64,000 nt of DNA. Source: a phage. Location of the stretch: the NCBI GenBank assembly GCA_012178725.1, contig GCA_012178725.1_3030.1; one strand, 5' to 3'. Positions 4,996 to 60,013 of this stretch are shown here, one piece after another (position 1 is the stretch's first letter; each line of letters begins with the position of its first letter). The notes beneath the pieces were generated by a model. That model had not been told where the DNA came from. It ran no database searches and was given only the letters and a program-made list of their open reading frames with translations. The translations under genes and the position numbers were made by a program.

Positions 4996-5000
4996 ATTGA

Positions 5001-5027
5001 GGGAGCCTTCGGGTTCCCTTTTTCTTT
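5001..5027 (+). terminator. Intrinsic terminator after gene 35 (UUCG-loop hairpin plus T-run)
   Basis: gggagcc-ttcg-ggttccc followed by ttttttcttt, 6 nt after the gene 35 stop. Confidence 0.7.
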
Positions 5028-8995: not shown

Positions 8996-9000
8996 TAAAA

Positions 9001-9014
9001 GGGCCTTCGGGCCC
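9001..9014 (+). promoter_or_regulatory. GC hairpin with UUCG loop between genes 37 and 38
   Basis: gggcc-ttcg-ggccc directly followed by the GGAGG ribosome-binding site and ATG of gene 38. Confidence 0.5.
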
Positions 9015-9025
9015 TGGAGGTTTTT

Positions 9026-9805: not shown

Positions 9806-9824
9806 ATGGTAATACCTCTCAGCA

Positions 9825-9832: not shown

Positions 9833-9850
9833 TCCTTAAAAGGAGGGTCT

Positions 9851-10780: not shown

Positions 10781-10792
10781 TAACTATACCAC

Positions 10793-11220: not shown

Positions 11221-11303
11221 AGACCTTCCCCTTATGTTTCTGTTTGCGATTAGATTCTTTAAACGCTTTCTTCTTATCCTTATGAACAGAAGCTTTATTA
11301 AAA

Positions 11304-12589: not shown

Positions 12590-12599
12590 TATTTATTCC

Positions 12600-13235: not shown

Positions 13236-13276
13236 TTTCTAATCTCCGTAATTCTGTATCAGTAGTTGATAGTTGT

Positions 13277-13306
13277 ATAGTACCACAGTATGCTTTGGTT
13301 GTAAAC
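13277..13306 (-). promoter_or_regulatory. Early promoter (GTTTAC-N18-TACTAT) upstream of motA
   Basis: Reverse strand reads GTTTACaaccaaagcatactgtggTACTAT with an A/T-rich upstream tract. Confidence 0.6.
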
Positions 13307-13321
13307 CGTTTTGTGAAAAAA

Positions 13322-13357
13322 TTTTTAAAATAAAAAAGGGAGAGCCTCGGCTCTCCC
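13322..13357 (-). terminator. Intrinsic terminator after gene 52/motA.1
   Basis: gggagagc/gctctccc stem, then TTTTTTATTTT on the - strand. Confidence 0.65.
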
Positions 13358-13362
13358 TAAAA

Positions 13363-13512
13363 TTACTGCATGACTGTGATAACTGTCATGATAACACGTT
13401 GAATTCCGAACGCAAGAAGACCTCCTGCTATGGCTGGAACAACGCCTAAACCCGCCAGTAAAATGCTACCAGATACTAATGCAGCGCTTGTAATACCAAT
13501 GAATGGACTCAT
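13363..13512 (-). CDS. Small hydrophobic ORF (49 aa) in the motA.1 position
   Basis: Hand-called MSPFIGITSAALVSGSILLAGLGVVPAIAGG...; ATGA overlap with the gene 52 stop. Confidence 0.4.
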   Translation of the reverse strand: MSPFIGITSAALVSGSILLAGLGVVPAIAGGLLAFGIQRVIMTVITVMQ

Positions 13513-14837: not shown

Positions 14838-14841
14838 AAAT

Positions 14842-14982
14842 TTACCATACTAGTGAATGTAGTGCCATAATAACATCAGAAATGAAAAGCACGACTTGAA
14901 TTAATCCGAACATTACTCCATAATATAGTGCTACTAATAAAGTAGCAAGGGCTAATGAATAGCCCAAGATTTTCTTAATCAT
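14842..14982 (-). CDS. Small membrane ORF (46 aa) in the 52.1 position
   Basis: Hand-called MIKKILGYSLALATLLVALYYGVMFGLIQ...; start overlaps the ac stop. Confidence 0.4.
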   Translation of the reverse strand: MIKKILGYSLALATLLVALYYGVMFGLIQVVLFISDVIMALHSLVW

Positions 14983-15133
14983 TAGTAGATAACAACACAA
15001 ATGTTAAATATGCACACATACCCTGGGCTAAAGCTTGCGAAAACACGCTGCTGGCATCAATACAGATAGTTAAAACACATGCTACTATCCAACAAATAAA
15101 TGAAATAACTCCTAATAATTTTGCAATATTCAT
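14975..15133 (-). CDS. ac: Small membrane protein in the ac position (52 aa)
   Basis: Hand-called MNIAKLLGVISFICWIVACVLTIC...; GAGGAAA ribosome-binding site; size and position as T4 ac. Confidence 0.5.
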   Translation of the reverse strand: MNIAKLLGVISFICWIVACVLTICIDASSVFSQALAQGMCAYLTFVLLSTND

Positions 15134-15140
15134 ATTTTCC

Positions 15141-15221
15141 TCACTGGCGTCCGAAGACGCCTTTAGTTTTAAGATTATTACGATAGAACTGCATCACATG
15201 TTCGTTATGGAAATTACTCAT
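15141..15221 (-). CDS. stp: Stp-position 26-aa peptide
   Basis: Hand-called [26 protein letters not shown]; ATG overlaps the ndd stop (TAATG); T4 Stp is 26 aa in this position. Confidence 0.6.
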
Positions 15222-15679
15222 TAATATGCCTGCAAAACAAATTTAAAGTTATCAGCCAACATACGGTTCATTTCTTCAAGTGTTTGATACTCAGAATGAT
15301 GATTACGAGTAAACGCCAAAGCTAACTGACCTTTACCAAATCCTGTCGTCAGAGGTTTCATCTTAGAAGCAGGCAGATAAAATACTGTGTATGGAACATT
15401 GTTATTTGCAATAGTACGTGCAAGCTGAGACCGACGTTGACGAATATGACTTAGAACTGCACTGAATCCTTGCTTAGAACGCTGATTACCTACATAAAAT
15501 CGTGCAGACACACATGGATTACTAAATGGACGACCATCTAATTTACTTACTAAAAAGTAAAATCCAGGTTTAGATAAAATGTCTTTATGCGGAGTTCCCA
15601 AAAACCATTCACCGCCCTTGATTGTGCCAATAACAGTTGCGCCTGCATTATTCAGATCAGTAACAGTCATGTATTTCAT
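15221..15679 (-). CDS. ndd: Nucleoid disruption protein Ndd
   Basis: ORF-track frame trimmed to the [13 protein letters not shown] start (152 aa, GAGGAAA ribosome-binding site); matches T4 Ndd. Confidence 0.9.
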
Positions 15680-15739
15680 ATTAATTTCCTCTAAATTATT
15701 TTCTACTCCAAGGCCGCATGAATACACGCGGCCATTAAA

Positions 15740-15955
15740 TTAATCGTCGCAGTCGACGCTCAATTCCCAAAACTCTTCTACGGTATAAGTTTCAATATCA
15801 TTTTCAATACAGAAACGTTCATTACTATTGTTTGCTAAAGTAGCGTTAACTGTCATTTTCTCGCTGGTACTCTTAAGAGGTGAAATACGAATTAACTGAT
15901 CACCGTTATCTAAACAAAAAATTTCACCAACTTTTACATCTTTAAAACTTTTCAT
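15740..15955 (-). CDS. Hypothetical protein (71 aa), ndd.x region
   Basis: ORF in operon orientation. Confidence 0.55.
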   Translation of the reverse strand: MKSFKDVKVGEIFCLDNGDQLIRISPLKSTSEKMTVNATLANNSNERFCIENDIETYTVEEFWELSVDCDD

Positions 15956-15963
15956 AATTCACC

Positions 15964-16074
15964 TCAAGGAGTATAAAATCCGAATGCAGTTGTTGACCAT
16001 CCCATCCAGTATGGGAAATTTGCACCAATGTAAAACATAAGAATATAAAACCAACCGCTCAGCAAATTCATCAT
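15964..16074 (-). CDS. Hydrophobic micropeptide (36 aa)
   Basis: Hand-called MMNLLSGWFYILMFYIGANFPYWMGW...; ATGA overlap with upstream stop. Confidence 0.35.
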   Translation of the reverse strand: MMNLLSGWFYILMFYIGANFPYWMGWSTTAFGFYTP

Positions 16075-16268
16075 TTTACACCGTTCCAAATTGTTTCAAC
16101 CACGGATTTTAAGCCATTTTGATGAATGTCCATTCCAACTACCGCCATCAAATAGATTCCAACTACAACTGAACCTAAGGCAAAAATCAGCATGAAAATG
16201 AATAAAGCCGGAAAAATATTATCGAAAAACCATTCAATAAATGTAAAAGCACTGCGTTTACGCTTCAT
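16071..16268 (-). CDS. Small membrane protein (65 aa)
   Basis: ORF-track frame trimmed to MKRKRSAFTF start, which has a GAGGA ribosome-binding site; one predicted membrane helix. Confidence 0.5.
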   Translation of the reverse strand: MKRKRSAFTFIEWFFDNIFPALFIFMLIFALGSVVVGIYLMAVVGMDIHQNGLKSVVETIWNGVK

Positions 16269-16275
16269 ATTTTCC

Positions 16276-16389
16276 TCACATAAATCCAAAGTAAACGTTT
16301 AATACATCAATCATTAAAACGATTGGGAATATACTCAAAACAACTAAAATTATAATTATATTCCATATAGCTTTAATAATCTTTTTCAT
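16276..16389 (-). CDS. Hydrophobic micropeptide (37 aa)
   Basis: MKKIIKAIWNIIIILVVLSIFPIV...; GGAGGA 7 nt upstream; the track's 82-aa version begins at a TTG inside the promoter. Confidence 0.45.
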   Translation of the reverse strand: MKKIIKAIWNIIIILVVLSIFPIVLMIDVLNVYFGFM

Positions 16390-16417
16390 TTTGTGTTCCT
16401 CCGTGGTTGATAGGGTA

Positions 16418-16447
16418 ATAATACCACAGAGGAACAGTCTTGTAAAC
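16418..16447 (-). promoter_or_regulatory. Early promoter (GTTTAC-N18-TATTAT)
   Basis: Canonical T4 early promoter architecture directly upstream of the 37-aa ORF. Confidence 0.6.
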
Positions 16448-16696
16448 AACTTTTTTAAAAATATTCGTAATAAATGTGAATACCAATCACTACTGCCGAA
16501 ACTTGCGCAACCCACCACGCACAAGCAATAAGTACAGAATTAAAAATTTTCATAATAACCTCATCACAAAAGTAAATGTTAAACAAATTACTGGAATACT
16601 AATTAACCAAACAAAACACCACCACAATGAACTCATAGTTCAATCTCAGCGATTTTCATTTTATTCTCCAAATCTGTATCAGTATTTGATAGTTGT

Positions 16697-16726
16697 ATAG
16701 TACCACGGTCCTTGTGGTATGTAAAC
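16697..16726 (-). promoter_or_regulatory. Early promoter (GTTTAC-N18-TACTAT) downstream of denB
   Basis: Same architecture and conserved leader CAACTATCAAATACTGATACAGA. Confidence 0.6.
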
Positions 16727-16741
16727 CATTTTGTGAAATTT

Positions 16742-17299
16742 TTAAATGGAAAGATACCATCCATTGTAGTTGCTTTTTCTTACAACCTTACGAAGGTCTT
16801 CTCTATCACCGATGAACTTCGGAGTGTACTGGATGACACCTGGATGAATTTCTTTAGTGTTGAATATAATTATACAGTCCGCGACCTGGTGATTTAGAAT
16901 GGGCCCTAGATTTATTCCAGAACCATATGGATACTCTCCGCTGCATCCTGTTGTTACAGAAATCCAACGTGAGTCAGTTTGATGTGTCTTAACTTCTACA
17001 CGGAGCCCGCAATATTTTGGATGTGCTAAAACATCCCATGCATATGTGTACGGATCATTGACATCTTCTTGGCCTTTATTGACATATCCGCTTAGCCAAT
17101 CTGCTACAAAAAACTCTGCGTACACAGCGATACGGCATCTTTCGATAACTTCTGTCTTATCCTGATTTGGGTTTTGTTTTAAAGAGTATCTTGCAGTATC
17201 AGCAATTTTGACCTTCATTTCACCAGTCAAGTCACTGTTCGATAGGGTAAATGTCGGAATCTGAAATAGTCTCTGTAGCCCCGGATTCGTTTTCTGCAT
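16742..17299 (-). CDS. denB: Endonuclease IV DenB
   Basis: 185-aa ORF in the denB position next to rIIB; size as T4 DenB. Confidence 0.85.
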   Translation of the reverse strand: MQKTNPGLQRLFQIPTFTLSNSDLTGEMKVKIADTARYSLKQNPNQDKTEVIERCRIAVYAEFFVADWLSGYVNKGQEDVNDPYTYAWDVLAHPKYCGLRVEVKTHQTDSRWISVTTGCSGEYPYGSGINLGPILNHQVADCIIIFNTKEIHPGVIQYTPKFIGDREDLRKVVRKSNYNGWYLSI

Positions 17300-17344
17300 T
17301 TAAACTTTCCTTTATGTCGGAATCACTGATATTCATATAATAAA

Positions 17345-17369
17345 TCATAAAACAAAAGGGCCGAAGCCC
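17345..17369 (-). terminator. Intrinsic terminator (GGGCUUCGGCCC plus U-run)
   Basis: On the - strand gggcttcggccc followed by TTTTGTTTTAT, between denB.1 and denB. Confidence 0.65.
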
Positions 17370-17374
17370 TTATT

Positions 17375-17569
17375 TTATTTGAATTGTGCAATTCTTTTCT
17401 CTAGACATTCAGCATAAGATTTCATTGAGATGAACTGTGAAAGCAGCAGTTCTTGCTCAACTGCACTAACCGTTAGAAACTTTGTGCTTTCTAAAAATTT
17501 GCTCAGTGCATTAATTTTGAGCATTAATTGATCGTATTCTTCTTTTACTCGTGCTTGATAACCTAACAT
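17375..17569 (-). CDS. Hypothetical protein (64 aa), denB.1 position
   Basis: ORF with AAGGAAA ribosome-binding site. Confidence 0.55.
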   Translation of the reverse strand: MLGYQARVKEEYDQLMLKINALSKFLESTKFLTVSAVEQELLLSQFISMKSYAECLEKRIAQFK

Positions 17570-17585
17570 AATTTTCCTTAGTTAA

Positions 17586-17597
17586 GGGCCGAAGCCC
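17586..17597 (-). promoter_or_regulatory. Intercistronic CUUCGG hairpin at the rIIB 3' end
   Basis: gggccgaagccc overlapping the rIIB stop; no U-run on the transcribed strand. Confidence 0.4.
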
Positions 17598-18536
17598 TTA
17601 TTTAAATTGTTCAGTAACGTCTTCAACTACTTCATATTGGCAGGTACGCATTTTAGCATCATTGTAATCAATCGGAATTGATACTACATCACGTGGATGT
17701 ACTTTAACTTTTACAACTCGGCTGGTTGAACTGCCAAAGTGACGAATATAAGATTTAGAACACACATGCAGACCACGAGAACAAGTTTGTGTATCATCGT
17801 CATTCACACGAGTACGCGGCATTTTAACTACTTTACCAGGACTGTTATCAAAGGTATTTGAGTGACAGTCAAAGTAATTGCTGCGAACTACTTTCCAAGC
17901 ATAGAAGTAACCATCTTCTGTAATTTCAATATCGTTTGCTACCAAGAAATCAAAAAGTCGAGATACCGCTTTCTGGCTTGGGTTTTCCAGCAGATTTTCC
18001 AAGAACGGAAAATAAAATTCAAAGTTTTCGCCTTTTTCCATCGAATCAAGAATACGATCAACCAAACCAGACCGCAATTCAATATTTTGATAGAATAAGC
18101 TTCCACCTTCAATTCGAACATCACCGGAAATATATTTTTCAACAGCGCGACGAACATTAATTTTTTGTGCCGCTTCTTCCAACTTATCCGCTACAAGCAG
18201 ATTAAGAATTTCCTGGAAGTTTGAATGAGTATTAGGAGTTGCGTTATAAGTTACACCGTCAACAGTAATTGAAATGAATTTTTTAGATGCATTCCAAATA
18301 ATGTCAGATTTAGCAACTGGAGCAATAACTGCATCGCTATTAACTTTAACTGTAATATCACCACTAATAGTAACTTTAGGGCGTTTAGCTTCTTCAGCAT
18401 TTTTCAAAACACGACGGATTGTGTCAACCGATACACCTTGCCAATCAGCCAATTCCTGTTGAGTGTAATTACCACTTGAATACAGTTTAACAATTTCAGC
18501 TTGTTCGTTTTTGGTCAGGCATTTAATATTGTACAT
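17598..18536 (-). CDS. rIIB: rIIB protein
   Basis: 312-aa ORF, length and synteny as T4 rIIB. Confidence 0.95.
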   Translation of the reverse strand: MYNIKCLTKNEQAEIVKLYSSGNYTQQELADWQGVSVDTIRRVLKNAEEAKRPKVTISGDITVKVNSDAVIAPVAKSDIIWNASKKFISITVDGVTYNATPNTHSNFQEILNLLVADKLEEAAQKINVRRAVEKYISGDVRIEGGSLFYQNIELRSGLVDRILDSMEKGENFEFYFPFLENLLENPSQKAVSRLFDFLVANDIEITEDGYFYAWKVVRSNYFDCHSNTFDNSPGKVVKMPRTRVNDDDTQTCSRGLHVCSKSYIRHFGSSTSRVVKVKVHPRDVVSIPIDYNDAKMRTCQYEVVEDVTEQFK

Positions 18537-18547: not shown

Positions 18548-20725
18548 TTAGGCCGCAAGGGCCTTCATAGTTTTAGCGATTTGGGAAACTTCATCATCAC
18601 TTAAAGAGTTGCGATAACCGATGAAGTCGGAAACAATACGGAATTTCTTGGTAAACTCAGCAACCATTTTATCACTGTTTTTTGAAGCATTATTTGATAA
18701 TACATCAAAAAGATTAGTTACTGTCCAGATGTCATGACCGATGGTATCTTTTCCACCATTAAAATATACACCGCGCAATGAACTAACTATATTAGCGAGT
18801 CGTGTATATTCTTCAGAAACTTCATCTGTACTGAAGTACTTCATCATAAAATCTAGTTCAGGATACTTGATAATTTTATCAATATATCGTTGAGCTGAAC
18901 TTGAATAACCTACGTACTTATCATAATCTACATCATCAAAAGCATCTACATATAAATCACGCAAAGCTTCAAAAATACATTGGCACTGACCGAGTTCTTT
19001 TACCTTTTTCTGTAAAAGCGGACGAATAACATAAAATTCATTAATGCCAATAAGATTAGCCATACGAATCAAAATATTCATAGATGGATGACAAAGAGAT
19101 GTAGTACCATCCATAGAGAAAATATCAGAACGATGCATATACGCTACATAACCAGTAATTTCATCTGCTTCTGATGTGAGCGTAAATAGTTCCTCTTTTT
19201 CCCATCGCCCATCTTTAATTTCAAATTTAAATGCTGTAGCAGCTTTAGGACGAGGAGCTTTACTTTTAACTACCTTTGGAATATAGCTTTTAACTAAAGC
19301 TTCAATTTCTGACAAATAATGAATGTTAACTTCATCACTTTCAAACATCGCCATAATATCAGGAAGTAAATCAATCTGCGATTCTACTTCCGGATTAATA
19401 AACAGAAGACGCTCATTGTGATGAATATTCAAAGTGTTATTAAATTCACTATCATCTAACGCGTGTGCTAATCCACGGACAATATTAACACGATTTTTAA
19501 TATTATCAATAACGATATTAATTTTTGTTGCATTAATACCAAACAGACGATAACTTGATGCAACGGCTGAAGTTTCATGACTTTGCTTAATGCGCTTCAG
19601 TCGAGGGTCAAGATTTACTTCATACACAACTCCTGCATTACATAACTTACTATCAGGTTCAAACATGCTTTGCATCTTCTTATATGACAGATTTTTAGTC
19701 GTAAATTTGACTGAATTACTAATCATATAATCTCGAGCAGAATATCCCATCTTCATCAATTCACGATATGTGTGACGAGGAGATGTAGATTCTTTAAATC
19801 GTTTTACATCTTCATTAAATGCTTTCTCACTGAGTTCTTTAACTCGTTCAATAATATTTTTACGAGTGCGATCATCCAGTGAAAGAGCCTCGCGAGATGG
19901 AGCAATATCAAGTGAACCCATTGGAAACTTAATGTAATTCACTTCATTGCGAATGCTTAGCCAGTTACGGTCTCTAATAACACCATCGATAGGATAAACA
20001 ATACCGCCATAGATAGCATACAATCCGCCGCGATCAGGCCAGTATCTTTCTGGATTTACACCGTAATAGTCATCAAAATCTGGAAAATAATCAATTTCGC
20101 GGTCAAGACCATTAATGATAGCCAAATCTTTGAATGGTCGCATGATATAAGAAACTTCATAAGCAAAGTTTCTAAAGTCTTTTTCTTCAACTGGAACTAC
20201 AATTTCAATACCAGTTTTATCATCTGGACCCATTTCTTTTACGAATGTAGGTTTAATCTGTGGACCATCACCATCCATATAAGCTACATAACCACGAATT
20301 TCACCTTTATGATACGAAGTAATACTAAATGTATCAGTATAACTAAACGGAGATTTAGAACCTAAACCAAATCCGCCAATGAAATCGTTAGATTCAGCCT
20401 TAGATGAACTGAAGTATGAATTATACAACCCAGGAGAATTATCATCACCTTGAATATCAAAATCACTCATACCCGGACCAAAATCTCGACAAACAAATCG
20501 TGGGTCTAAACGTCCAGGAATTTGTATGATAAATTTTTCAGGATTTCCATTAAGTGCATGAGCATCAATCATGTTAGTAATCAATTCACGGACTACTGCG
20601 CGAATCTTGTTTGTATACAAATCAGATGATAGAATTTTAAATACTTTAGGATTTGCTGCGATGCTAAATGCTTTTGATTTAGAACCATTACCAAGAATTG
20701 TTTCTTTTTCAGTGGTGATAATCAT
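18548..20725 (-). CDS. rIIA: rIIA protein
   Basis: 725-aa ORF, length, sequence and synteny as T4 rIIA. Confidence 0.95.
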
Positions 20726-20964: not shown

Positions 20965-20994
20965 ATTATACCACATCCTTGTGGTAAAGTAAAC
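20965..20994 (-). promoter_or_regulatory. Early promoter (GTTTAC-N18-TATAAT) upstream of rIIA.1/rIIA
   Basis: Reverse strand reads GTTTACtttaccacaaggatgtggTATAAT; the -35 overlaps the gene 39 stop. Confidence 0.65.
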
Positions 20995-22811
20995 TACTGG
21001 CTCATCCATTCTTTACGAAGGTCAGCATTATCTCCCATGAGCATTTCAAAAAGCTCTTTCCAGTTCTCAGGAAGTTTAACAACATCATATACTGGATTTT
21101 GAATCATCTCACGATATTCAGATTTTTCCAAAGAGCCAAGTCCTTTAATATAACGGATGCTATGTTTAGGTAGAGCATCTTTGGCACTCTCATATTCAGC
21201 GACTGTATAAAACCATTCTTGTTTTTTACCGACCTGAGCGATGATTACAGGAGTTTTGACAAAGCGAATTCGTCCTTGCTCAAACAGTTCTGGCCAATTA
21301 CTAAAAAATCCAAGAAGAGAAGGATAAATGCTTCCTAGACCATCATGGTCAGCATCAGTCATAATAGCAATATTATGATAATTCAAGTTTTCAGCTTTTT
21401 CACCAAGAACTAGACCAGTGATTGCGCAAATATCAAACAGTTCTTTGTTTTTAAGCATATCTGCATAAGACATACCCCAGCTATTAAGAACTTTACCACG
21501 CAATGGATAACCACCGTGAAGTTCTTTATCACGAACATCAATAAGATATCCGATAGCAGAATCACCCTCAGTCAAGAAAAGAGTAGTGTCAGCATCTTTA
21601 CCGCAAAGATTCGCTTTGATATGTTTATGAACCTTAGCTTTAGAAGCCTTTTTAGCTGCTTTAGTTTCTGCTGCTTTTTCTGCCGCCAATTTACGAGCCA
21701 AAGCAGCTTCAATAATCGGCATTAGAATTGCTTCATTATTTAGAATAGCACGTGAAATCTTTTTAGCATCAAGTTGAATATGACTACGGATTTCACCAAA
21801 TGGAGAAGTCAAACGCTCTTTAGTTTGAGAATCAAATCGCATGTTTTTCATATCACGAACAAACATAACGATAGTCAAACATTCTTTGACACGCGCTTTG
21901 GTTACATCAATTTTGAACTTACGTTTGATTTGTGGAATAAGGTCTTCACAAATATCATCCATAACACAGTCAATGTGATGGCCACCATTCTTAGTATGAA
22001 TGTTATTCACATAAGTTAATTGACGAAAACCATCCGGTGAACGACCAACTGCAATAGAACAATTTTCTTGTTCTTGAACGATAGCATGCTCATCATATTG
22101 GCGTGCATATTTCTTAAAATTACCCTGAACCTTTTTACCATTAAAGGTAAATTGAATATCAGGATAAACAACAGCAAGTGTCTGGAGACGATCTAGTGTA
22201 ATGTCAAGATAAACTTGGGACAGCTCATTAGTTTCAAATGACATAAAATCAGGAATGAAAGTAACACGAGTTCCTTTCCATTTTCCTGGAATAGTTTCCC
22301 ATGATTTATTTTCCATGCCATTTGAACAACGAACTACAATATTATTTTGACCATCGCCAGTTTCACCAACAAACATCACAGAAAAAATGTTAGTTAAACT
22401 AGAACCAACACCGTTCATACCGCCGGTGACGCGTTCTTTATCATCACCGAAGTTACCACCTGCTTTTGGAATAGTCCATGCAGCAACAGGACCAGGAATT
22501 TCTTCACCGGTAGGTGTTTTAACCATCGCTTGTGGAATACCGCGACCGTTATCTTCAACTGTTACTTGATTGTTTTTAATAGTAACGTTAATTTTATTTG
22601 CGAATTTAAACTTAGTACGAATACCTTCATCTACTGAGTTATCGATAATTTCATCAATAAGCTTAACAAGACCAGGTACATACTGAACACTTTCCCATTT
22701 ACCAAACAGAAAGCGCTCATGCATTTCATTAGCAGAAGAACCAATGTACATGCCGCTACGCTTTTTGATATGTTCAATATCGCTCAGAATTTTAATTTCA
22801 TTCTTAATCAT
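20994..22811 (-). CDS. 39: DNA topoisomerase II large subunit gp39, uninterrupted
   Basis: 605-aa ORF from MIKNEIKIL (the track's first M is a GTG one codon upstream) with GyrB ATPase and Toprim regions in one frame. Confidence 0.93.
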   Translation of the reverse strand: MIKNEIKILSDIEHIKKRSGMYIGSSANEMHERFLFGKWESVQYVPGLVKLIDEIIDNSVDEGIRTKFKFANKINVTIKNNQVTVEDNGRGIPQAMVKTPTGEEIPGPVAAWTIPKAGGNFGDDKERVTGGMNGVGSSLTNIFSVMFVGETGDGQNNIVVRCSNGMENKSWETIPGKWKGTRVTFIPDFMSFETNELSQVYLDITLDRLQTLAVVYPDIQFTFNGKKVQGNFKKYARQYDEHAIVQEQENCSIAVGRSPDGFRQLTYVNNIHTKNGGHHIDCVMDDICEDLIPQIKRKFKIDVTKARVKECLTIVMFVRDMKNMRFDSQTKERLTSPFGEIRSHIQLDAKKISRAILNNEAILMPIIEAALARKLAAEKAAETKAAKKASKAKVHKHIKANLCGKDADTTLFLTEGDSAIGYLIDVRDKELHGGYPLRGKVLNSWGMSYADMLKNKELFDICAITGLVLGEKAENLNYHNIAIMTDADHDGLGSIYPSLLGFFSNWPELFEQGRIRFVKTPVIIAQVGKKQEWFYTVAEYESAKDALPKHSIRYIKGLGSLEKSEYREMIQNPVYDVVKLPENWKELFEMLMGDNADLRKEWMSQ

Positions 22812-22838: not shown

Positions 22839-22866
22839 ATTATACTCCGGTAATCATAAAGCTAAA
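22839..22866 (-). promoter_or_regulatory. Middle promoter (MotA box GCTTTA plus -10 TATAAT) upstream of gene 39
   Basis: Reverse strand reads tttaGCTTTAtgattaccggagTATAAT, 12-nt spacing typical of MotA-dependent promoters. Confidence 0.55.
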
Positions 22867-22880
22867 GGCCCGAAGGCCTT
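22867..22880 (-). terminator. CUUCGG hairpin (possible terminator) after the lipoprotein gene
   Basis: aggcccgaaggcct; downstream sequence only moderately U-rich. Confidence 0.45.
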
Positions 22881-23153
22881 TTATTTAAAACGGATAGTCG
22901 AATCCTTGAAGAATAGACCAGAACATACGGTTCCTTCTACTTTCTGCCCGGTAGGTCCAATAGCGCGAAATCCAGTATGTTGGAAATCATTTTCAGAGCA
23001 ACCGAACCAATTGTATCCAGTGATTTCAATATTAGTAAAACCGCTTGATGACAAAATTTTGGTTGCATTATCAGCATCAGTACATCCTGCTAAAGACACT
23101 GCTAATACTAATGCTGCGATAGAACGATTAATATATTTCATAATTTCACTCAA
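22881..23153 (-). CDS. Predicted lipoprotein (90 aa)
   Basis: Signal peptide with lipobox LAGC; alternative start at MKYINR. Confidence 0.6.
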   Translation of the reverse strand: MSEIMKYINRSIAALVLAVSLAGCTDADNATKILSSSGFTNIEITGYNWFGCSENDFQHTGFRAIGPTGQKVEGTVCSGLFFKDSTIRFK

Positions 23154-24634: not shown

Positions 24635-24719
24635 GTTGTTTTCTGTATCAGTAGTTGATATTGATATAGTACCATAATCAACTACTGATGTATATAGTTT
24701 TATGAAAAAATTTTAAACT

Positions 24720-29415: not shown

Positions 29416-30162
29416 TTATCCTCGGATAAGTTTAAAAATTGAACAATTTAGCGGGTATCCTCTTTTCAGTTTAAGTTTATCAATAAAAGACAAGTTTTGA
29501 TACCGCTCTACACCTTGAATAATTTTATCACACATATCATATTGCATTTCTGCTTCTGACAACTTTTTCACAATTTTCCAATCCGAGCCTTTAAGAAGAA
29601 CGTTCAGTTTAACAACTTCAGCGCCTTCTGCTATGCGAGAACCATCAATACGAGCTTTAAGTGCTATAATCCTTAGCTTAATGTCAGAGGTCTGTTTTGA
29701 TTTAGAAAGCTGAGAAATGTGTTCAATTCGATTTTCACGTTTTTTCTGTATAGCTTTAATTTGATTATAAGTCTTTTTGATTTTAGCCCATTTCTTTTCA
29801 TCTAAATTTAGTTTATGAACTTTTTTCGCAGATGAACGACCAATTCGCAAAGCAAATAAATCCCGTTTTTCAATTAACTCCTCTAAAGTATAATCAGAAC
29901 GAAATGTATTATACTTTTTCTTTACTGCAATAACATTCCCTTTAATGTATCCAACGTTATTATCAAAACGTTCTAATGATAATTTCTCTCCTTCAATACG
30001 ATTATCAAAAGGTTCTCCCGAGTAAGCACAAACTTTTTGATCTAAAATGTTCTTAATGTAATTGAAGTCTAAGTTAAAATCTTTAGAACGTCTTTTTGCA
30101 GATGCCTGAGTATGCTCTAAACGACGTTTAATTTTACGAATTTGGTTATTAGACAGCTTCAT
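29416..30162 (-). CDS. srd: Srd-position protein (248 aa)
   Basis: Basic ORF between dda.1 and modA as in T4; identity by synteny and size only. Confidence 0.6.
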   Translation of the reverse strand: MKLSNNQIRKIKRRLEHTQASAKRRSKDFNLDFNYIKNILDQKVCAYSGEPFDNRIEGEKLSLERFDNNVGYIKGNVIAVKKKYNTFRSDYTLEELIEKRDLFALRIGRSSAKKVHKLNLDEKKWAKIKKTYNQIKAIQKKRENRIEHISQLSKSKQTSDIKLRIIALKARIDGSRIAEGAEVVKLNVLLKGSDWKIVKKLSEAEMQYDMCDKIIQGVERYQNLSFIDKLKLKRGYPLNCSIFKLIRG

Positions 30163-30888: not shown

Positions 30889-31508
30889 TCAACTACCTCA
30901 ATATCATAAACTTTAAATGTTCCAAATGAATCGTGTAATTTTTCTTTTGAAATAGAAGTTATTCTATACTTTCCAATTGGAATCATCCATTCTTGTTCAC
31001 GCACAATCATCATTAAGTTATCAGTACGCTCTGAATCTAATCCATCAGTATCTTCATACGTGTACTTAAACTCAGTATTAGGAGAAGAAAGTATAATATC
31101 GCTGATATGGTCAGAATAATTAAAAGCTTTATTAGTTTTTAAGCGAAGTATTATTTTAGTAAAATATTCAGCATAAGAAAAAGAACATGCTGTGAGCAAA
31201 CTAGTAGTAAATGAATCTACTCTATTCGTTGAAAACACTTCTCCAACTTGTAAATCTTTAATAAGTTCTTCTGTTGATTTTGATATACCACGATATAGCT
31301 GATAAGGAGATTTAGTTAAATGCTTTTTAATGATTTTATTCAACTGCCTATGAAGAGCTTCATTCTTTTTGGCTTCCATACATTGCCAAAGAATTGACTG
31401 TTCAAAGTCAGTAAATTTTTCACAGACCTTTTTATACATATCATATTGAAAATCAACGCTTTCAGCTTTTATAGATAACTGTTCAACATCTGCAAGATTA
31501 ATAATCAT
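30885..31508 (-). CDS. modB: ADP-ribosyltransferase ModB
   Basis: 207-aa ORF with LYRG and EQEWMIPIG motifs; ATGA overlap with modA. Confidence 0.88.
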   Translation of the reverse strand: MIINLADVEQLSIKAESVDFQYDMYKKVCEKFTDFEQSILWQCMEAKKNEALHRQLNKIIKKHLTKSPYQLYRGISKSTEELIKDLQVGEVFSTNRVDSFTTSLLTACSFSYAEYFTKIILRLKTNKAFNYSDHISDIILSSPNTEFKYTYEDTDGLDSERTDNLMMIVREQEWMIPIGKYRITSISKEKLHDSFGTFKVYDIEVVE

Positions 31509-31534
31509 GATAGCCTCCGTATACTTCAGAAGCT

Positions 31535-31564
31535 ATCATATCATTGTTAGAAAGGAAAGTAAAC
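31535..31564 (-). promoter_or_regulatory. Early promoter (GTTTAC-N18-TATGAT) upstream of modB
   Basis: Reverse strand reads GTTTACtttcctttctaacaatgaTATGAT. Confidence 0.55.
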
Positions 31565-33633: not shown

Positions 33634-33663
33634 ATTATACCATACTCATTTTGGAAAGTAAAC
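33634..33663 (-). promoter_or_regulatory. Early promoter (GTTTAC-N18-TATAAT)
   Basis: Reverse strand reads GTTTACtttccaaaatgagtatggTATAAT. Confidence 0.6.
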
Positions 33664-33698
33664 CATTTAAATGAAAAAAGGACTCCCGAAGGAGTCCT
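33664..33698 (-). terminator. Intrinsic terminator after soc
   Basis: aggactcc-UUCG-ggagtcct then TTTTTTCATTT on the - strand. Confidence 0.65.
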
Positions 33699-33703
33699 TA
33701 AAT

Positions 33704-37796: not shown

Positions 37797-37825
37797 AACA
37801 ATCTCCTCATTTAACCAACAAGACT

Positions 37826-37855
37826 ACTATACCATAGTCTCGTCAGCTTGTAAAC
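37826..37855 (-). promoter_or_regulatory. Early promoter (GTTTAC-N18-TATAGT) upstream of dmd
   Basis: Reverse strand reads GTTTACaagctgacgagactatggTATAGT; the -35 overlaps the gene 41 stop. Confidence 0.55.
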
Positions 37856-39291: not shown

Positions 39292-39654
39292 TTAAAAGAA
39301 TTTAAATTTTTTCTTTGACCTTTTATTAAATGCATCTTGCAGTTGCATTGTAATACATTTTTCTACATGAGGAGCTAACTCAGCTTTTCTTTCTTGGTCA
39401 AGAACAGCAAAGTCCATTACGACTTTTCCATCAACCCAATCTAATTTTGTCACATACACAATGTGTGTAGAACCATCTTCTAGTTTAATGACAATCTCCT
39501 GGATAACATTTTCCATGGCAGATTTAATTATCTTAAGAGATTCATTAAAAAGACGTTCTTTTCTTTCTTCTTCCCCCTCCGAAGAGGGGGATTCATCGAT
39601 AATTTCTAGATCTAAATCTAAATCATCTTTATTCATTAAATTCTTCCATATCAC
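39292..39654 (-). CDS. 40: gp40-position protein
   Basis: 120-aa ORF between uvsX and 41; contains an in-frame UUCG hairpin (ccccctccgaagaggggg). Confidence 0.6.
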   Translation of the reverse strand: MIWKNLMNKDDLDLDLEIIDESPSSEGEEERKERLFNESLKIIKSAMENVIQEIVIKLEDGSTHIVYVTKLDWVDGKVVMDFAVLDQERKAELAPHVEKCITMQLQDAFNKRSKKKFKFF

Positions 39655-40810: not shown

Positions 40811-40887
40811 TCATTTTTTCCATAGGCATCATTATATTTTCCTCACTGGTTAAAGATAGAGTAATTATAACACAATAAATTTAGGCA

Positions 40888-43272: not shown

Positions 43273-43524
43273 TTAAAACTTAACAAATAACTTTAAAGCA
43301 TCTTCAGTTTTAATTCCTTTTCTTACACCCATAACAGAAATTGGCTGTGACTGAAATTTTCCTTTACCATTATAAATTTCTAATCCAGTCACCATTCCAT
43401 TTTGTTCTATAATACCGTAAGTGTTACCTTCATTTTCAAATTCTTTAACTTTAAAAAGTTTATTCGCTTTTTCTGCGTTAACAACTTTTAAATTTTGAAT
43501 AAAATTAGTTTGAATATTTTTCAT
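43273..43524 (-). CDS. Hypothetical protein (83 aa)
   Basis: First gene after a duplicated promoter-leader cassette. Confidence 0.55.
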   Translation of the reverse strand: MKNIQTNFIQNLKVVNAEKANKLFKVKEFENEGNTYGIIEQNGMVTGLEIYNGKGKFQSQPISVMGVRKGIKTEDALKLFVKF

Positions 43525-43582
43525 TTTGTGTTCCTCCGTAGTTGATAGTTGTATAGTACCACAGAGGAACGGTCTTGTAAAC
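43524..43582 (-). repeat. Promoter-leader cassette copy 2
   Basis: About 55 bp nearly identical to 16389-16447, including -35, -10, ribosome-binding site and ATG. Confidence 0.75.
43552..43581 (-). promoter_or_regulatory. Early promoter (GTTTAC-N18-TACTAT)
   Basis: Reverse strand reads GTTTACaagaccgttcctctgtggTACTAT. Confidence 0.6.
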
Positions 43583-43654
43583 AGTTTTGTGAAAAAATTT
43601 TTAATGAATCCAAAAGGTCCAGAATCATCTGTTTTTCATAAGTATAGATTTATA

Positions 43655-43686
43655 TTACTTGTATGAAAAAGGGACCCGGAGGTCCC
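43655..43686 (-). terminator. Intrinsic terminator after gene 43
   Basis: gggacc-UCCG-ggtccc then TTTTTCATAC on the - strand. Confidence 0.65.
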
Positions 43687-43699
43687 CAGATTTATTCTA

Positions 43700-46435: not shown

Positions 46436-46444
46436 GATATATTA

Positions 46445-46470
46445 TACTCCAAATAAGGGGCCGAAGCCCC
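46445..46470 (-). terminator. GGGGCUUCGGCCCC hairpin after regA (terminator-like), with TATAAT just downstream
   Basis: Hairpin followed by UUAUUUGGAGUAUAAU on the - strand. Confidence 0.55.
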
Positions 46471-46474
46471 TTGC

Positions 46475-48369: not shown

Positions 48370-48401
48370 AATTTCCTCATTCAAGTTTTAGTGTAAATTA
48401 T

Positions 48402-48419
48402 AAAGGGCCGAAGCCCTTT
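48402..48419 (-). promoter_or_regulatory. Intercistronic CUUCGG hairpin between genes 45 and 44
   Basis: taaagggccgaagcccttta; identical 20-mer also at 53981-54000. Confidence 0.45.
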
Positions 48420-48420
48420 A

Positions 48421-49107
48421 TTAAAAATCGTGGGTAGAATCAGCTTCAAGAGCTACTACATAATTCGCGTGTTCACCTTCAAATTTAGCAGCACCTTGTT
48501 TACCTTTTGCCCAGAGCAGAAGTTTATAATTTCCTGGTTGCATTTTCATATTTGCCATATTGATAATGAAATTAAATGTATTTTCACCATCATAATCACC
48601 AAGAGTCAAAGAATATTTAACACGGGTCAAAGCAGAATCTTCTACTTTATTAAAACCGTTAATTACGATTTTACCTTCTTTTACTGTGATAGCAATTGTA
48701 TCAATCTGCAGACCACGAGATACACGCAACAGTTGTTGAAGGTCTTCAGCTTTAATTTCAGTAACAACAGATGCTACCGGGAATGGAATCGGTTTATTAG
48801 GAGCAACTACTGTACTCGGATCGGCTGCTGGCCAAAAAATTGTTGAGCGGGCATCAGCAATTTTAATATTTCCATCTTCTGACTGGGAAATTTCTGCATC
48901 ATCATTAACTAGAGACAGAATACCGAGAAAACCGTTCAAATCGTAAATCGCTACATCAAAATCAATAACGTCAGAAATATTTGCTTCCGCATAAGTTGTA
49001 CCATTAACTGCACGAGTCATAATAAATTGACCTGATTTAAGCATAATACCGGAGTTAATAGTAGCGAAATTTTTAAGCAGAGCAGTAGTATCTTTAGACA
49101 GTTTCAT
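48421..49107 (-). CDS. 45: Sliding clamp gp45
   Basis: 228-aa ORF; length as T4 gp45. Confidence 0.93.
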   Translation of the reverse strand: MKLSKDTTALLKNFATINSGIMLKSGQFIMTRAVNGTTYAEANISDVIDFDVAIYDLNGFLGILSLVNDDAEISQSEDGNIKIADARSTIFWPAADPSTVVAPNKPIPFPVASVVTEIKAEDLQQLLRVSRGLQIDTIAITVKEGKIVINGFNKVEDSALTRVKYSLTLGDYDGENTFNFIINMANMKMQPGNYKLLLWAKGKQGAAKFEGEHANYVVALEADSTHDF

Positions 49108-49750: not shown

Positions 49751-49805
49751 GTTTTTCCTCCATAGAGATTATACTCTAATAAATTAAAGCATAATCTCTT
49801 ATAAA

Positions 49806-53821: not shown

Positions 53822-53981
53822 ATATCAAGAACCGTCATTGAAATGCAAAATAAAATTATTGAAATAAATCCATCTGGAGTGCTAAAGAACCCAATCCAAC
53901 ATGCTCTAGTGAATAGATAAAATGCGAGAAAAAGTATCACATATCCAAGAAATATCATTATATCAAACTCCGTATAAAGCT

Positions 53982-53999
53982 AAAGGGCCGAAGCCCTTT
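53982..53999 (-). promoter_or_regulatory. CUUCGG hairpin at the alpha-gt 3' end, followed by TATAAT
   Basis: taaagggccgaagcccttta overlapping the alpha-gt stop; same 20-mer as at 48401. Confidence 0.5.
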
Positions 54000-55200
54000 A
54001 TTTTGTAATAATGTCAAACTGTTCTTTAAAGCAGAAGCTTGAATCTTGATGCTGATACAAAAATTCATAAGCTTTTTCGCGTTCGCGGTCATAAAGAGTT
54101 CGATCAGATGACAGTTCTTTAATACGTTCAAATGTTGATTCCATGTCATTTTCATCAAACCAAATGATACCGCTATCATGCGAGGTCAAAGGAGTATTAT
54201 CAACACGGAATTTTAAATTTTCGCCAGTAGATTTCCAAAATACCGGAATTGTTCCACATGCACCAAGCTCGAGATGAGTATATTCTAAAGAACGTTGTAG
54301 ATATTTTTTATCCAACTTACTCAACTGATAACCAAAACCGGATTTACTCATACGTTCAAGCATTTCGCTATTTACATAACGGTCAAGAATTTGCGTTGGC
54401 AAATTAGGAGCAATTTTAATTTGGTCTACTTGATGAAGACGATAATACTCGTATGGAATTCCTTTTTCTTTAATAGGAATGAACGCTGGAGAACGTTCCA
54501 GACCTTCCATAATAGTACTTAGTCCTGCAGGTTTAAGATGTTTTTCATGAAAATCAAACATCTGATAAAAACCTTTCCATGTAGTCGTACGACCAATCCA
54601 ACGGTTGATATTCATGTTAATTTCAGAAACATCTTTCCAGTAGGTTGATCGAACCTTCGCAATATCCATCGGAGGTTGAAAGTTATATACTGTCGGTGCT
54701 TCTTCAATATCATCAAACAGAGAAACTGTTTCAGGATACCATTCTTTCATCAGAACTTTATTAAAATCACCATTATCAGAATGGCTAAAAATAACATCAG
54801 CTCGACGAACAGTTTCTTCTAATCCCAAATTTCGGCGCAAAGAAAGAGAAGAATGGTCATGTTGATAAACTACAACACGAACAGAAGGTTTAATGTTATC
54901 AATAATTTTTTTATAGTTATTAATAGTGTCTTCTTCAACCGAAGTAGCAGGAACTGAATTGATAATTAGAATATCACAATCATTTACCAGCTTAAGTGTT
55001 TTATCATATTCTTTTGCCAATAAAACCGGAATTGAAAATGATTTATAATCATGCGCGCAATTACGAGTAAATGATTTATCTTTAGCATAAACCAAAGTTA
55101 CTTCATGACCATTCTTAATAAACCAATCACGTTGCTCAAGAGAAAATTTAGTTACACCACAACCTTCAAGACCTCGAGCCATAAAAATACATACTTTCAT
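53998..55200 (-). CDS. agt: DNA alpha-glucosyltransferase
   Basis: 400-aa ORF MKVCIFMARGLEGCGVTKFSLEQRDWF...; matches T4 alpha-gt. Confidence 0.95.
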   Translation of the reverse strand: MKVCIFMARGLEGCGVTKFSLEQRDWFIKNGHEVTLVYAKDKSFTRNCAHDYKSFSIPVLLAKEYDKTLKLVNDCDILIINSVPATSVEEDTINNYKKIIDNIKPSVRVVVYQHDHSSLSLRRNLGLEETVRRADVIFSHSDNGDFNKVLMKEWYPETVSLFDDIEEAPTVYNFQPPMDIAKVRSTYWKDVSEINMNINRWIGRTTTWKGFYQMFDFHEKHLKPAGLSTIMEGLERSPAFIPIKEKGIPYEYYRLHQVDQIKIAPNLPTQILDRYVNSEMLERMSKSGFGYQLSKLDKKYLQRSLEYTHLELGACGTIPVFWKSTGENLKFRVDNTPLTSHDSGIIWFDENDMESTFERIKELSSDRTLYDREREKAYEFLYQHQDSSFCFKEQFDIITK

Positions 55201-55224: not shown

Positions 55225-55270
55225 ATTTTACCAAAAATTTATAAAGCAATATAGGAGCCGAAGCTCCTAT
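55225..55270 (-). promoter_or_regulatory. UUCG hairpin plus putative MotA-box middle promoter upstream of alpha-gt
   Basis: Reverse strand reads ataggagcUUCGgctcctat then attGCTTTAtaaatttttggTAAAAT. Confidence 0.4.
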
Positions 55271-57583: not shown

Positions 57584-57604
57584 ACATTATCCTCAATTGC
57601 GTTA

Positions 57605-57635
57605 AAATTTTATTATCCAAAAAGGGCCGAAGCCC
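57605..57635 (-). terminator. Intrinsic terminator (GGGCUUCGGCCC plus U5)
   Basis: gggccgaagccc followed by TTTTTGGATAAT on the - strand. Confidence 0.6.
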
Positions 57636-57836
57636 TTAGCTAAACTTTTTGGCACCCTTCCAGCCTTCATACATCATTGCGGCTGATATTAATATTGCTC
57701 CTGAGCAACTTGAATATTTGTGATTCCAAAACCAGTTTAGAAAAACTTCGTCATCAATACCTTGTGCTATCATATTTTCAAAGAACTGACGACGAGCTTC
57801 GGCAATTCGCTGCGATAATTTAGATTCAGGATTCAT
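57636..57836 (-). CDS. Hypothetical protein (66 aa)
   Basis: ORF. Confidence 0.5.
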   Translation of the reverse strand: MNPESKLSQRIAEARRQFFENMIAQGIDDEVFLNWFWNHKYSSCSGAILISAAMMYEGWKGAKKFS

Positions 57837-58444: not shown

Positions 58445-58474
58445 ATCAAATCCTCAAAGGCAATTCATATGTTA

Positions 58475-58504
58475 ATAATACCACGGTTTGAACTTGTTGT
58501 AAAC
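58475..58504 (-). promoter_or_regulatory. Early promoter (GTTTAC-N18-TATTAT)
   Basis: Reverse strand reads GTTTACaacaagttcaaaccgtggTATTAT. Confidence 0.6.
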
Positions 58505-58564
58505 AACTTTGTGAAAAATATTTTAGGGAATGATAAGAAGGGAACGATAGCTTAGAATGGTAAT

Positions 58565-59542: not shown

Positions 59543-60013
59543 TTAATCATGTTTCCACACCCCATCGGTATTTGACCAAAGTCGCTGATTATCTGATCCT
59601 CGCCACAGCTTTTTAGTCGGAAGATTTTTCTCATACTTCCCATCAATAATAACATCAACATATTTAAGCATTTCTAGTTGTTTAATATCTTCAAACTTAT
59701 ATCCTGTCCACAACCAAATGCTTTTATTGGGATAAAGATTTTTTACTGTTTGAACCACAGAGTGAATCACGTCTCTGTTATCAGGATAAAGAGGGTCACC
59801 TCCGGTTATAGTTAATCCTTCTATATAATCATTATTCAAACATTCAATCAATTGTTCTAGTGTTTCACCAGTAAATGGAATACCATTTCTAGCATTCCAT
59901 GTTGATTTATTATAACACCCTTCGCATTTATGCAAACAACCTGTAACGAAAAGAACGACCCTGCATCCAGGGCCATTCACAAAATCACAGGGATAAAATC
60001 TATCGTAATTCAT
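59543..60013 (-). CDS. nrdG: Anaerobic ribonucleotide reductase activase NrdG
   Basis: 156-aa ORF with radical-SAM cluster motif CLHKCEGC; length as T4 NrdG. Confidence 0.93.
   Translation of the reverse strand: MNYDRFYPCDFVNGPGCRVVLFVTGCLHKCEGCYNKSTWNARNGIPFTGETLEQLIECLNNDYIEGLTITGGDPLYPDNRDVIHSVVQTVKNLYPNKSIWLWTGYKFEDIKQLEMLKYVDVIIDGKYEKNLPTKKLWRGSDNQRLWSNTDGVWKHD

Follow-up and report, generated by a model that had tools for sequence, protein, structure and literature searches.

The C(UUCG)G hairpins of bacteriophage T4 are a textbook family, and it was through them that the UUCG tetraloop came to light. The family was reportedly set out by Tuerk et al. in 1988 (PNAS 85:1364). Its members carry a UUCG loop on a C-G closing pair, flanked by complementary segments of 2 to 8 or more nucleotides in which G-U pairs are allowed. 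As summarised in passages of Hall 2015 (PMC4371310) and of PMC8948821, the latter citing Tuerk et al. 1988, CUUCGG hairpins are abundant in T4 and lie predominantly between genes. A passage of PMC8948821, again citing Tuerk et al. 1988, adds that they stop reverse transcriptase.

What marks an intrinsic terminator in E. coli and its phages is a G+C-rich hairpin with a U-tract immediately after it. In the PeSL and PmSL cassettes, a stem-loop, a promoter, a Shine-Dalgarno sequence and a start codon follow one another between small genes (PMC2839356; Comeau 2014, PMC4122927). The version with a Mot box (PmSL) was described for Vibrio phage nt-1. The T4 gene mobE contains an internal hairpin of 9 pairs with a 4-nt loop, located 27 nt into the gene. 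Experiments by 3′ RACE and RNase protection identified it as a 30-50% terminator (Wilson and Edgell 2009, PMC2790892).

The window, that is, the whole stretch of 64,000 nt analysed here, is a segment of a Tequatrovirus (T4-like) coliphage. It is a T-even mosaic, 93-99% identical to T4 (NC_000866) by BLAST. A 3-kb piece of it is matched by about 500 Tequatrovirus genomes at 95-99% identity, with Escherichia phage Ptacy1496 as the best match, and phage vB_EcoM_Maryam matches another piece at 100% identity. Position 1 of T4 corresponds to window position 18537 (BLAST against NC_000866). In window positions 1-18536, the + strand encodes late genes 34-38 and t, after which the - strand encodes asiA to rIIB; positions 18537-64000 carry rIIA to about nrdC, all on the - strand. 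The bypass hairpin of T4 gene 60 is missing from the window because the topoisomerase gene is unsplit here.

The hairpins of the window are real, functional and already described (Tuerk et al. 1988). They agree with the T4 family in the loop, the closing C-G pair, the form (X)n CUUCGG (Y)n, the mostly intergenic location, the abundance and the presence on the transcribed strand. Nothing essential differs, and the window phage has lineage-specific variants. The initial annotation had assigned them to the extra-stable CUUCGG family first reported from T4 mRNA, in agreement with passages of PMC4371310 and PMC8948821.

Number, placement and tails of the C(UUCG)G hairpins

Every UUCG on both strands of the window was inspected, and a hairpin was counted if its C(UUCG)G sat on a stem of 6-9 contiguous pairs. 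The scan returned 13 hairpins, two on the + strand and 11 on the - strand. In 300 dinucleotide-preserving shuffles of the window, such hairpins averaged 0.13 and never exceeded 2. When only perfect stems with six or more pairs, three or more of them G-C, are counted, C(UUCG)G caps 12 (11 on the - strand and one on the + strand). Apart from the reverse complement of C(UUCG)G, every other tetraloop in this set occurs once, which leaves C(UUCG)G as the sole recurring tetraloop among the perfect stems of the window. The UUCG lies on the mRNA-sense strand, i.e. the strand of the local genes, in 13/13 hairpins.

The predicted minimum-energy fold with flanks contains the hairpin in all 13 cases, so the claim that these sequences form stable stems stands. 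Predicted energies lie between -8.8 and -15.9 kcal/mol. Against shuffles the folded segments stand out only modestly, with z-scores from -0.06 to -3.5, because dinucleotide shuffling retains the G/C runs. On the sense strand the internal wobble pairs are four G.U and no A.C. Rfam gave no match in the window at its gathering thresholds, since these hairpins are too small for curated families.

The scan thus recovered a real and well-understood signal, and three previously listed sites were corrected. The initial annotation had counted at least 14 UUCG hairpins at 16 coordinates; the family was recovered, and the count is reduced to 13, as three of the coordinates are stable hairpins with loops other than UUCG. 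The hairpin listed at 43671 lies at 43670..43687 (- strand) after the gene 43 stop and reads C(UCCG)G followed by UUUUU, placing it in the UNCG class and not the UUCG class. The one listed at 13338 lies after motA.1 at 13337..13358 (- strand) and has 9 pairs, AGGGAGAGC(CGAG)GCUCUCCCU, with the tail UUUUUUAUUUU. Both are followed by a U-run. The third, listed at 18551, is a 5-pair stem with a pentaloop, GGCC(CUUGC)GGCC, in the last codons of rIIA (18550..18564, - strand), and its fold energy is unremarkable against shuffles (z = -0.07).

The hairpins are tied to the 3′ ends of cistrons. Eleven of the 13 start no more than 6 nt from the upstream stop codon, which is part of the stem in six, and 11 are intergenic or overlap a stop codon. 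Two copies had been reported inside coding sequence, in stp and gene 40, and ORF analysis and translation bore this out. The stp hairpin (15146..15161, - strand) occupies the codons G-V-F-G-R-Q within the last six codons of stp and ends 5 nt short of the end of the stop codon, with the Shine-Dalgarno sequence of ac coming next. The uvsX/40 hairpin (39572..39591, - strand; 8 pairs, -15.9 kcal/mol) starts 37 nt past the uvsX stop and occupies the codons S-P-S-S-E-G-E of gene 40. It falls in coding sequence only through the overlap of the gene 40 AUG with the end of uvsX. These in-frame copies therefore do not deserve the special notice given to them, as both obey the placement of the other hairpins at the 3′ end of the upstream cistron, stp in one case and uvsX in the other.

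The sequences downstream of the hairpins differ in their content of U, which was counted in the first 5 and the first 10 nt past the G+C core. Strong U-tracts, with 4-5 U of 5 and 6-8 of 10, follow four hairpins, at 35/36, denB.1/denB, soc and 55.3. The 35/36 hairpin (4999..5020, + strand; 9 pairs, -14.6 kcal/mol) continues into UUUUUCUUU and is terminator-like. The denB.1/denB hairpin (17356..17371, - strand) begins 3 nt past the denB.1 stop, runs into UUUUGUUUU and is likewise terminator-like. The soc hairpin (33678..33699, - strand; 9 pairs, -14.5 kcal/mol), 4 nt past the soc stop, is followed by UUUUUUCAUUU and is called a terminator. The 55.3 hairpin (57622..57637, - strand) overlaps the 55.3 stop and has the terminator-like tail UUUUUGG; its folded segment, 57602-57657, is the one with z = -0.06 against dinucleotide shuffles.

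Broken or intermediate U-tracts (3-4 U of 5) follow another four. The 45/44 hairpin (48400..48421, - strand; 9 pairs, -12.1 kcal/mol), which contains the flagged copy of an identical 20-mer, is intercistronic at the gene 45 stop and has the tail UUUAUAAUUU. The 39.1/39 hairpin (22864..22881, - strand) is located at the 39.1 stop. The a-gt/47.1 hairpin (53981..54000, - strand), which is the second copy of the 20-mer, has a stem that starts with the a-gt stop UAA. The regA/43 hairpin (46455..46472, - strand), 2 nt past the regA stop, overlaps the upstream part of the promoter P43.

A U-tract is absent, with 0-2 U of 5, from the last group of four, namely 37/38, stp, rIIB/denB.1 and uvsX/40, the last of these continuing into AAGAAGAAAG. 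The 37/38 hairpin (9000..9015, + strand) lies 4 nt past the gene 37 stop and adjoins the GGAGG Shine-Dalgarno sequence of gene 38. The rIIB/denB.1 stem (17583..17600, - strand) opens with the rIIB stop UAA, and the denB.1 Shine-Dalgarno sequence comes next. The a-gt.2/a-gt hairpin (55251..55270, - strand), which holds the a-gt.2 stop UAG, has a weak tail. The U counts thus agree with the initial statement that some hairpins have U-runs and others lie between cistrons without them.

The terminator rule of the scanner picked out 5/13 hairpins on the sense strand, at 35/36, 37/38, denB.1/denB, soc and a-gt.2/a-gt. A terminator between genes 35 and 36 was predicted in all 6 T4-like genomes compared (PMC1524935). 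In phage DalCa two orthologous hairpins are annotated as terminators, by prediction only, the one at denB.1/denB as rho-independent. The hairpin and U-tract after a stop codon that define intrinsic terminators are found at 35/36, denB.1/denB, soc and 55.3, and also at the non-UUCG hairpins at 13337 and 43670. This feature is present in part of the family only. The family differs from intrinsic terminators in that five members have no U-tract, or a weak one, and four have a broken one; its members are not simply terminators.

Identical copies and conservation in relatives

The 20-mer TAAAGGGCCGAAGCCCTTTA is present exactly, as first noted, at 48401-48420 and 53981-54000, and no such match occurred in 100 shuffles. 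Its significance as a special pair was not upheld. A 16-mer, AAGGGCUUCGGCCCUU, is common to five hairpins in the window, and the extra identity of the two 20-mers amounts to one or two positions, which are lineage-specific. At the 45/44 junction, T4 has GAGGGC..GCCUUU and five IMG/VR relatives have AUAGAGGGC; the form UAAAGGGC was found only in the window and in Ptacy1496 among the genomes examined. The flanks of the two copies have no homology past the stop codon and the A/U runs. At least 4 phage lineages without DNA alignable to the window also have the exact 20-mer, with a stop codon on one side of it and a Shine-Dalgarno sequence on the other.

A duplication of the 20-mer was therefore rejected, as the flanks are unrelated, the identity is lineage-specific and the 20-mer recurs in unrelated phages. 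A mobile or duplicated palindromic repeat of the REP type would extend its homology past the palindrome or show shared descent, and neither was found, given the unrelated flanks and the non-aligning phages that carry the same 20-mer. The sequence is made up of UAA, a short G+C clamp, UUCG and the complement of the clamp, and convergence is therefore the simplest reading.

Direct T4 orthologues exist for 12/13 sites. The T4 37/38 junction reads AGAGGGGC(UUCG)GCCCUUCU. At rIIB/denB.1, T4 has a 1-nt deletion in the stem, which is intact in the window, and the 45/44 stem is perfect in the window and wobble-paired in T4. The stp hairpin is invariant in T4 and 5 relatives, while the neighbouring codons carry synonymous changes. 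Stem variants occur among relatives at regA/43.

The 45/44 spacer carries a tetraloop hairpin in 16/16 loci around gene 45 (gp45 identity 53-100%), with 8 different stems, these loci, like the others compared here, being phylogenetically dependent. UUCG is the usual loop; two loci instead have UACG on a U.G closing pair, and UUUG and GAAA are found at a single locus each. In one close relative a compensatory G-C pair is present where others carry G.U. The denB.1/denB hairpin is kept at 51% rIIB identity as AAAGCCC(UUCG)GGGCUUU, in which GGGC/GCCC has been swapped to GCCC/GGGC. The rIIB/denB.1 hairpin was found in Tequatrovirus only; its loop is UUUG in two relatives, and relatives at 51% rIIB identity lack it. 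The change of stems while the hairpin is kept at the same junctions, taken with the other comparative results, indicates that selection acts on RNA structure and not on DNA sequence.

The uvsX survey covered 80 loci, 37 of them T-even-like; the 160 nt after the uvsX stop were folded at each locus and the best hairpin was chosen. The pairing percentages obtained at uvsX/40 (script counts) are circular, as the best hairpins were preselected, and the fair test is the comparison with background. A hairpin of -10.7 to -19 kcal/mol is present in 37/37 T-even-like loci, whereas windows drawn at random from the same loci contain one in 5.9% of cases. These hairpins comprise at least 10 different stems and loops, and the peptides they encode within the gene 40 homologue differ (for example SPSSEGE, EESSDEDS, SLAGETQPV and DAEGAKAPS). 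The hairpin after uvsX is intergenic in phages whose gene 40 does not overlap uvsX. The retention of a stable hairpin past uvsX across divergent T4-like phages, even when it is encoded in gene 40, is a modest addition to what has been described.

The sense-only bias of C(UUCG)G is also seen in 39 related loci. In those enterobacterial T4-like loci that reach 62% uvsX identity, C(UUCG)G ranks first or second among tetraloops and invariably reads in the sense direction; its enrichment is absent from the more distant, mostly environmental loci of the same survey.

The one indel examined in detail, beside denB.1/denB, was considered as a possible hairpin-mediated event. This was rejected, as short A-rich repeats within an ORF border its junction, away from the hairpin.

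Promoters joined to the hairpins

A promoter stands directly after the hairpin at six of the 13 sites. Four of these promoters are middle promoters with mapped T4 starts, one is early (soc) and one is late (35/36). The late promoter motif TATAAATA is located at 5027-5034 (+ strand) after the 35/36 hairpin, and an early-type promoter lies at 33634-33662 (- strand) after the soc hairpin.

MotA boxes have the consensus (a/t)(a/t)(a/t)TGCTTtA and lie 12 +/- 1 bp from the -10 element (PMC2988021). At P39, the 3′ arm of the 39.1/39 hairpin enters the MotA-box-like UUAGCUUUA (22857-22865), and 12 nt further on is TATAAT (22839-22844). The arrangement at P47 is the same, with the 3′ arm of the a-gt/47.1 hairpin entering UUAGCUUUA (53975-53983) and TATAAT 12 nt further on (53957-53962). 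These two modules are 87% identical over 31 nt, MotA box included. The match to PmobB/Pa-gt.1 has the MotA box AUUGCUUUA (55242-55250) after the a-gt.2 hairpin, followed after 11 nt by TAAAAT (55225-55230). At P43, TATAAT (46441-46446) lies 8 nt downstream of the regA/43 hairpin, and the GCTT of the hairpin loop is at -31 to -28 from the mapped start, where the core of the MotA box lies.

The mapped starts of the T4 middle promoters are 5349 for P39, 29933 for P43, 36576 for P47 and 38682 for PmobB (PMC2988021 Table 1). The orthologous T4 hairpins end at 5381 (P39), 29952 (P43, hairpin 29952-29969), 36607 (P47) and 38715 (PmobB), placing the starts of P39, P43, P47 and PmobB 32, 19, 31 and 33 nt downstream of them, respectively. 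A sigma-70 consensus scan of the window found no excess of promoter-like sites; therefore the promoter calls rest on the MotA-box and -10 motifs and on the mapped T4 starts.

At these six sites the hairpin leads straight into the promoter of the following gene, so one transcription unit is closed where the next one opens. Units closed and reopened within about 35 nt, by hairpins fused to mapped middle, early or late promoters, are another modest addition.

A stem-loop immediately before a promoter, and the order of stem-loop, promoter, Shine-Dalgarno sequence and start codon, are shared with the PeSL/PmSL cassettes. PeSLs, however, are long and near-identical whole modules in hyperplastic regions, whereas the window hairpins share the hairpin only, together with the Mot box in one pair. 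Many near-identical whole modules were not found in the window; there is the one pair of 31 nt, and the other flanks are unrelated. Many of the window hairpins also lie between core replication genes, and the stem consensus published for the PeSLs of the PST/T4 pair (AGNA-loop-TCNT) is unlike the window stems. Among the few junctions looked at, insertions adjoin the regA/43 and a-gt.2 modules, and the denB.1/denB indel junction is elsewhere.

A further, rather doubtful proposal is that the UUCG hairpin of T-even phages makes up, with the MotA-dependent middle promoter, a single portable unit that combines terminator and promoter. The hairpin DNA would then do double duty, its 3′ arm contributing the A/T stretch of the MotA box (at P39, P47 and PmobB) and its loop the GCTT at P43. 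Units with 20-31 nt of identity could serve as micro-homology for cassette swaps. The hairpin in gene 40, retained in many genera although the encoded peptides change, might for its part be an RNA element dedicated to uncoupling uvsX from genes 40 and 41.

Function at the ends of cistrons

The preferred reading, to which we give a probability of roughly 0.78, is that the hairpins are RNA elements at cistron 3′ ends and that their function is set by the downstream sequence, which makes them terminators, leaky attenuators or exonuclease barriers. The analysis itself establishes that the hairpins exist, are enriched, favour the sense strand, sit at cistron ends, adjoin promoters and are conserved while their stems change; termination efficiency and exonuclease protection are what we infer for them. 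Short G+C-rich stems with the extra-stable C(UUCG)G cap would be carried in the polycistronic early, middle and late mRNAs. The tetraloop would nucleate folding at once, and the hairpin would form once RNA polymerase and the terminating ribosome have gone by. Since six stems include the stop codon, a ribosome close behind the polymerase would delay their folding, so termination may be translation-dependent.

The sites with a U-tract (35/36, denB.1/denB, soc and 55.3) are predicted to be intrinsic terminators, and those with a broken tract (45/44, 39.1/39, a-gt/47.1 and regA/43) are predicted to be leaky terminators or attenuators. Five hairpins have no U-tract, a-gt.2 being the weak one among them, and termination therefore cannot be their role. 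These sites (37/38, stp, rIIB/denB.1, uvsX/40 and a-gt.2) are most likely barriers to 3′-to-5′ exonucleases. Such a barrier would fix a stable 3′ end of the upstream cistron after read-through and endonucleolytic cutting. The barrier role is drawn from general mRNA decay in E. coli, where PNPase, RNase II and RNase R act. PNPase, RNase II and RNase R are listed as acting on T4 mRNAs (PMC3014915). A search of the accessible literature for published T4 3′-end or Term-seq maps found none, and for most of the T4 hairpin sites it gave no 3′-end, half-life or termination data. The hairpins are also of use in the engineering of operons in phages or bacteria, as compact and context-independent caps for RNA ends.

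Dispersed inverted repeats could instead act in the DNA, alone or fused to promoters, as recombination linkers or protein-binding sites that shuffle cassettes in the manner of PeSL/PmSL, with the identical copies arising by copying. The fusion of six hairpins to promoters and the likeness of the 39.1/39 and a-gt/47.1 modules would suit such a role, as would a 26-nt direct repeat, 92% identical, on both sides of denB.1. T4 mobB, just downstream of the a-gt.2 module, and a 73-aa ORF of Ptacy1496 are inserted beside two hairpins (the a-gt.2 and regA/43 modules), yet indels and hairpins are both restricted to intergenic DNA, and their closeness is therefore expected. PeSL-mediated mini-circles have been reported (Arbiol 2010, PMC2839356), and a passage of the same paper, citing Mosig 1998, places T4 deletion endpoints at GGGC/GCCC motifs. 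A function of the duplex, however, predicts neither the 13/13 sense bias nor the swap to the RNA-stable UACG and GAAA loops in relatives, and the G.U pairs are on the sense strand only. The five copies of AAGGGCUUCGGCCCUU have non-homologous flanks, and the same 20-mer is found in unrelated phages. We consider a role at the DNA level improbable.

Tuning of translation as the main role, with the in-ORF copies slowing ribosomes, would draw on the hairpins at 37/38, stp/ac and rIIB/denB.1, which end 0-12 nt before the next Shine-Dalgarno sequence, and on the six stems that hold the upstream stop codon, so that a terminating ribosome must melt them. Many cases of translational control, by RegA and gp43, are also known in the region (PMC3014915). 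For most hairpins, however, the next start codon is 30-70 nt away with a promoter between, and none of the predicted folds sequesters a Shine-Dalgarno sequence or a start codon. The uvsX/40 hairpin lies about 45 nt past the gene 40 AUG, beyond the initiation footprint. Tuning of translation leaves the U-tracts and the link to stop codons unexplained, and has in our view a similarly small chance of being the main role. An artefact of composition, in an AT-rich genome with scattered G+C clusters, would fit those folded segments that do no better than dinucleotide shuffles, such as 57602-57657. It is refuted by the shuffle counts (13 hairpins against 0.13 expected, and no more than 2 in 300 shuffles) and by the conservation at 45/44, and is given next to no weight; the hairpins are all on the sense strand, nearly all at stop codons, and kept at orthologous junctions across genera.

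For the hairpin inside gene 40, the mobE terminator of T4 (Wilson and Edgell 2009, PMC2790892) has the same layout, a hairpin with a 4-nt loop tens of nucleotides into the 5′ coding region of the downstream gene. The mobE hairpin limits transcripts from the upstream gene and has a short poly(U) and mapped 3′ ends, whereas the gene 40 hairpin is followed by AAGAAGAAAG.

Hairpin DNA at the regA|43 junction

The mapped start of the T4 middle promoter P43 is only 19 nt past the C(UUCG)G hairpin of the regA|43 junction (T4 29933–29969, equivalent to window 46455–46472, minus strand, plus the downstream nucleotides). The hairpin DNA is therefore located at about −19 to −36 of P43. Its loop sequence, GCTT, falls at −31 to −28 from the mapped start, which is the position of the MotA-box core, and the distance from this GCTT to TATAAT is about 2 nt beyond the usual spacing of 12 ± 1. 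The same stretch of DNA could be used in two ways, as an RNA hairpin and as an element of the P43 promoter. Some close relatives harbor an extra ORF of 73 residues exactly between the regA stop codon and the hairpin (L001 nt 29557–29778 in Ptacy1496; also the related locus L009). In the relatives with this insertion, the hairpin is still joined to the gene 43 promoter.

The 20-mer in other phages

At least four phage lineages whose DNA cannot be aligned to the window (IMG/VR contigs L114–L135) also carry the exact 20-mer TAAAGGGCTTCGGCCCTTTA, which occurs in the window at 48401–48420 and 53981–54000. In these lineages, it separates a stop codon from a Shine-Dalgarno sequence. Twelve of the contigs form one group, with G+C contents from 36% to 43%.

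Reading frames beside the hairpins and differences from T4

A 38-residue ORF is encoded between the denB.1|denB hairpin and denB (17232–17348, minus strand). It is a remnant, produced by internal deletion, of a 109-residue ORF that Shigella phage JK38 shares with many other Tequatrovirus genomes. Short A-rich repeats flank the deletion junction, which is away from the denB.1|denB hairpin.

The 55.3 ORF of the window ends at the UAA that opens the stem of the hairpin at 57622–57637 (minus strand), whereas in the T4 annotation gene 55.3 continues through the orthologous hairpin (T4 40823–40838) and stops 24 nt later. Because the annotated gene reads through, either this hairpin would be a third coding-sequence copy in T4, in addition to those in stp and gene 40, or the annotated reading frame differs.

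The large topoisomerase subunit is a single unsplit ORF of 605 residues (20994–22811, minus strand), in contrast to the gene 60/mobA/gene 39 split of T4; the UUCG-capped translational-bypass hairpin of gene 60 (T4 2834–2857) is missing from the window. The region 5910–9825 aligns poorly to T4. It includes a 259-residue ORF after gene 37 (9026–9805, plus strand) with glycine-rich repeats of the GGCGGTGGTGGT type (9478–9733, repeat family D4), whose product looks like the gp38 adhesin of the T2/T6 type and not the assembly chaperone of the T4 type.

Other stable hairpins and the early-promoter repeat

Further very stable hairpins, with non-UUCG loops (−16 to −18 kcal/mol), were identified at 10550–10582 on the plus strand and at 15712–15733, 31506–31540, 37813–37848, 49764–49799 and 59953–59978 on the minus strand. 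A promoter region or Shine-Dalgarno sequence appears to lie within some of them, such as 49764–49799 and 31506–31540, and the one at 59953–59978, within the nrdD/nrdG region, is followed by a U-run.

The longest dispersed repeat of the window is a family of five copies in minus-strand sense (13252–13328, 16378–16461/16672–16748, 24641–24717, 43513–43604 and 58450–58526; repeat families D1, D5, D6 and D11), 77–84 nt long and 65–86% identical. The repeat spans T4-type early promoters, with the A/T-rich upstream region, GTTTAC and TATAGT/TATAAT, and about 25 nt of the transcribed leader are also similar among the copies.
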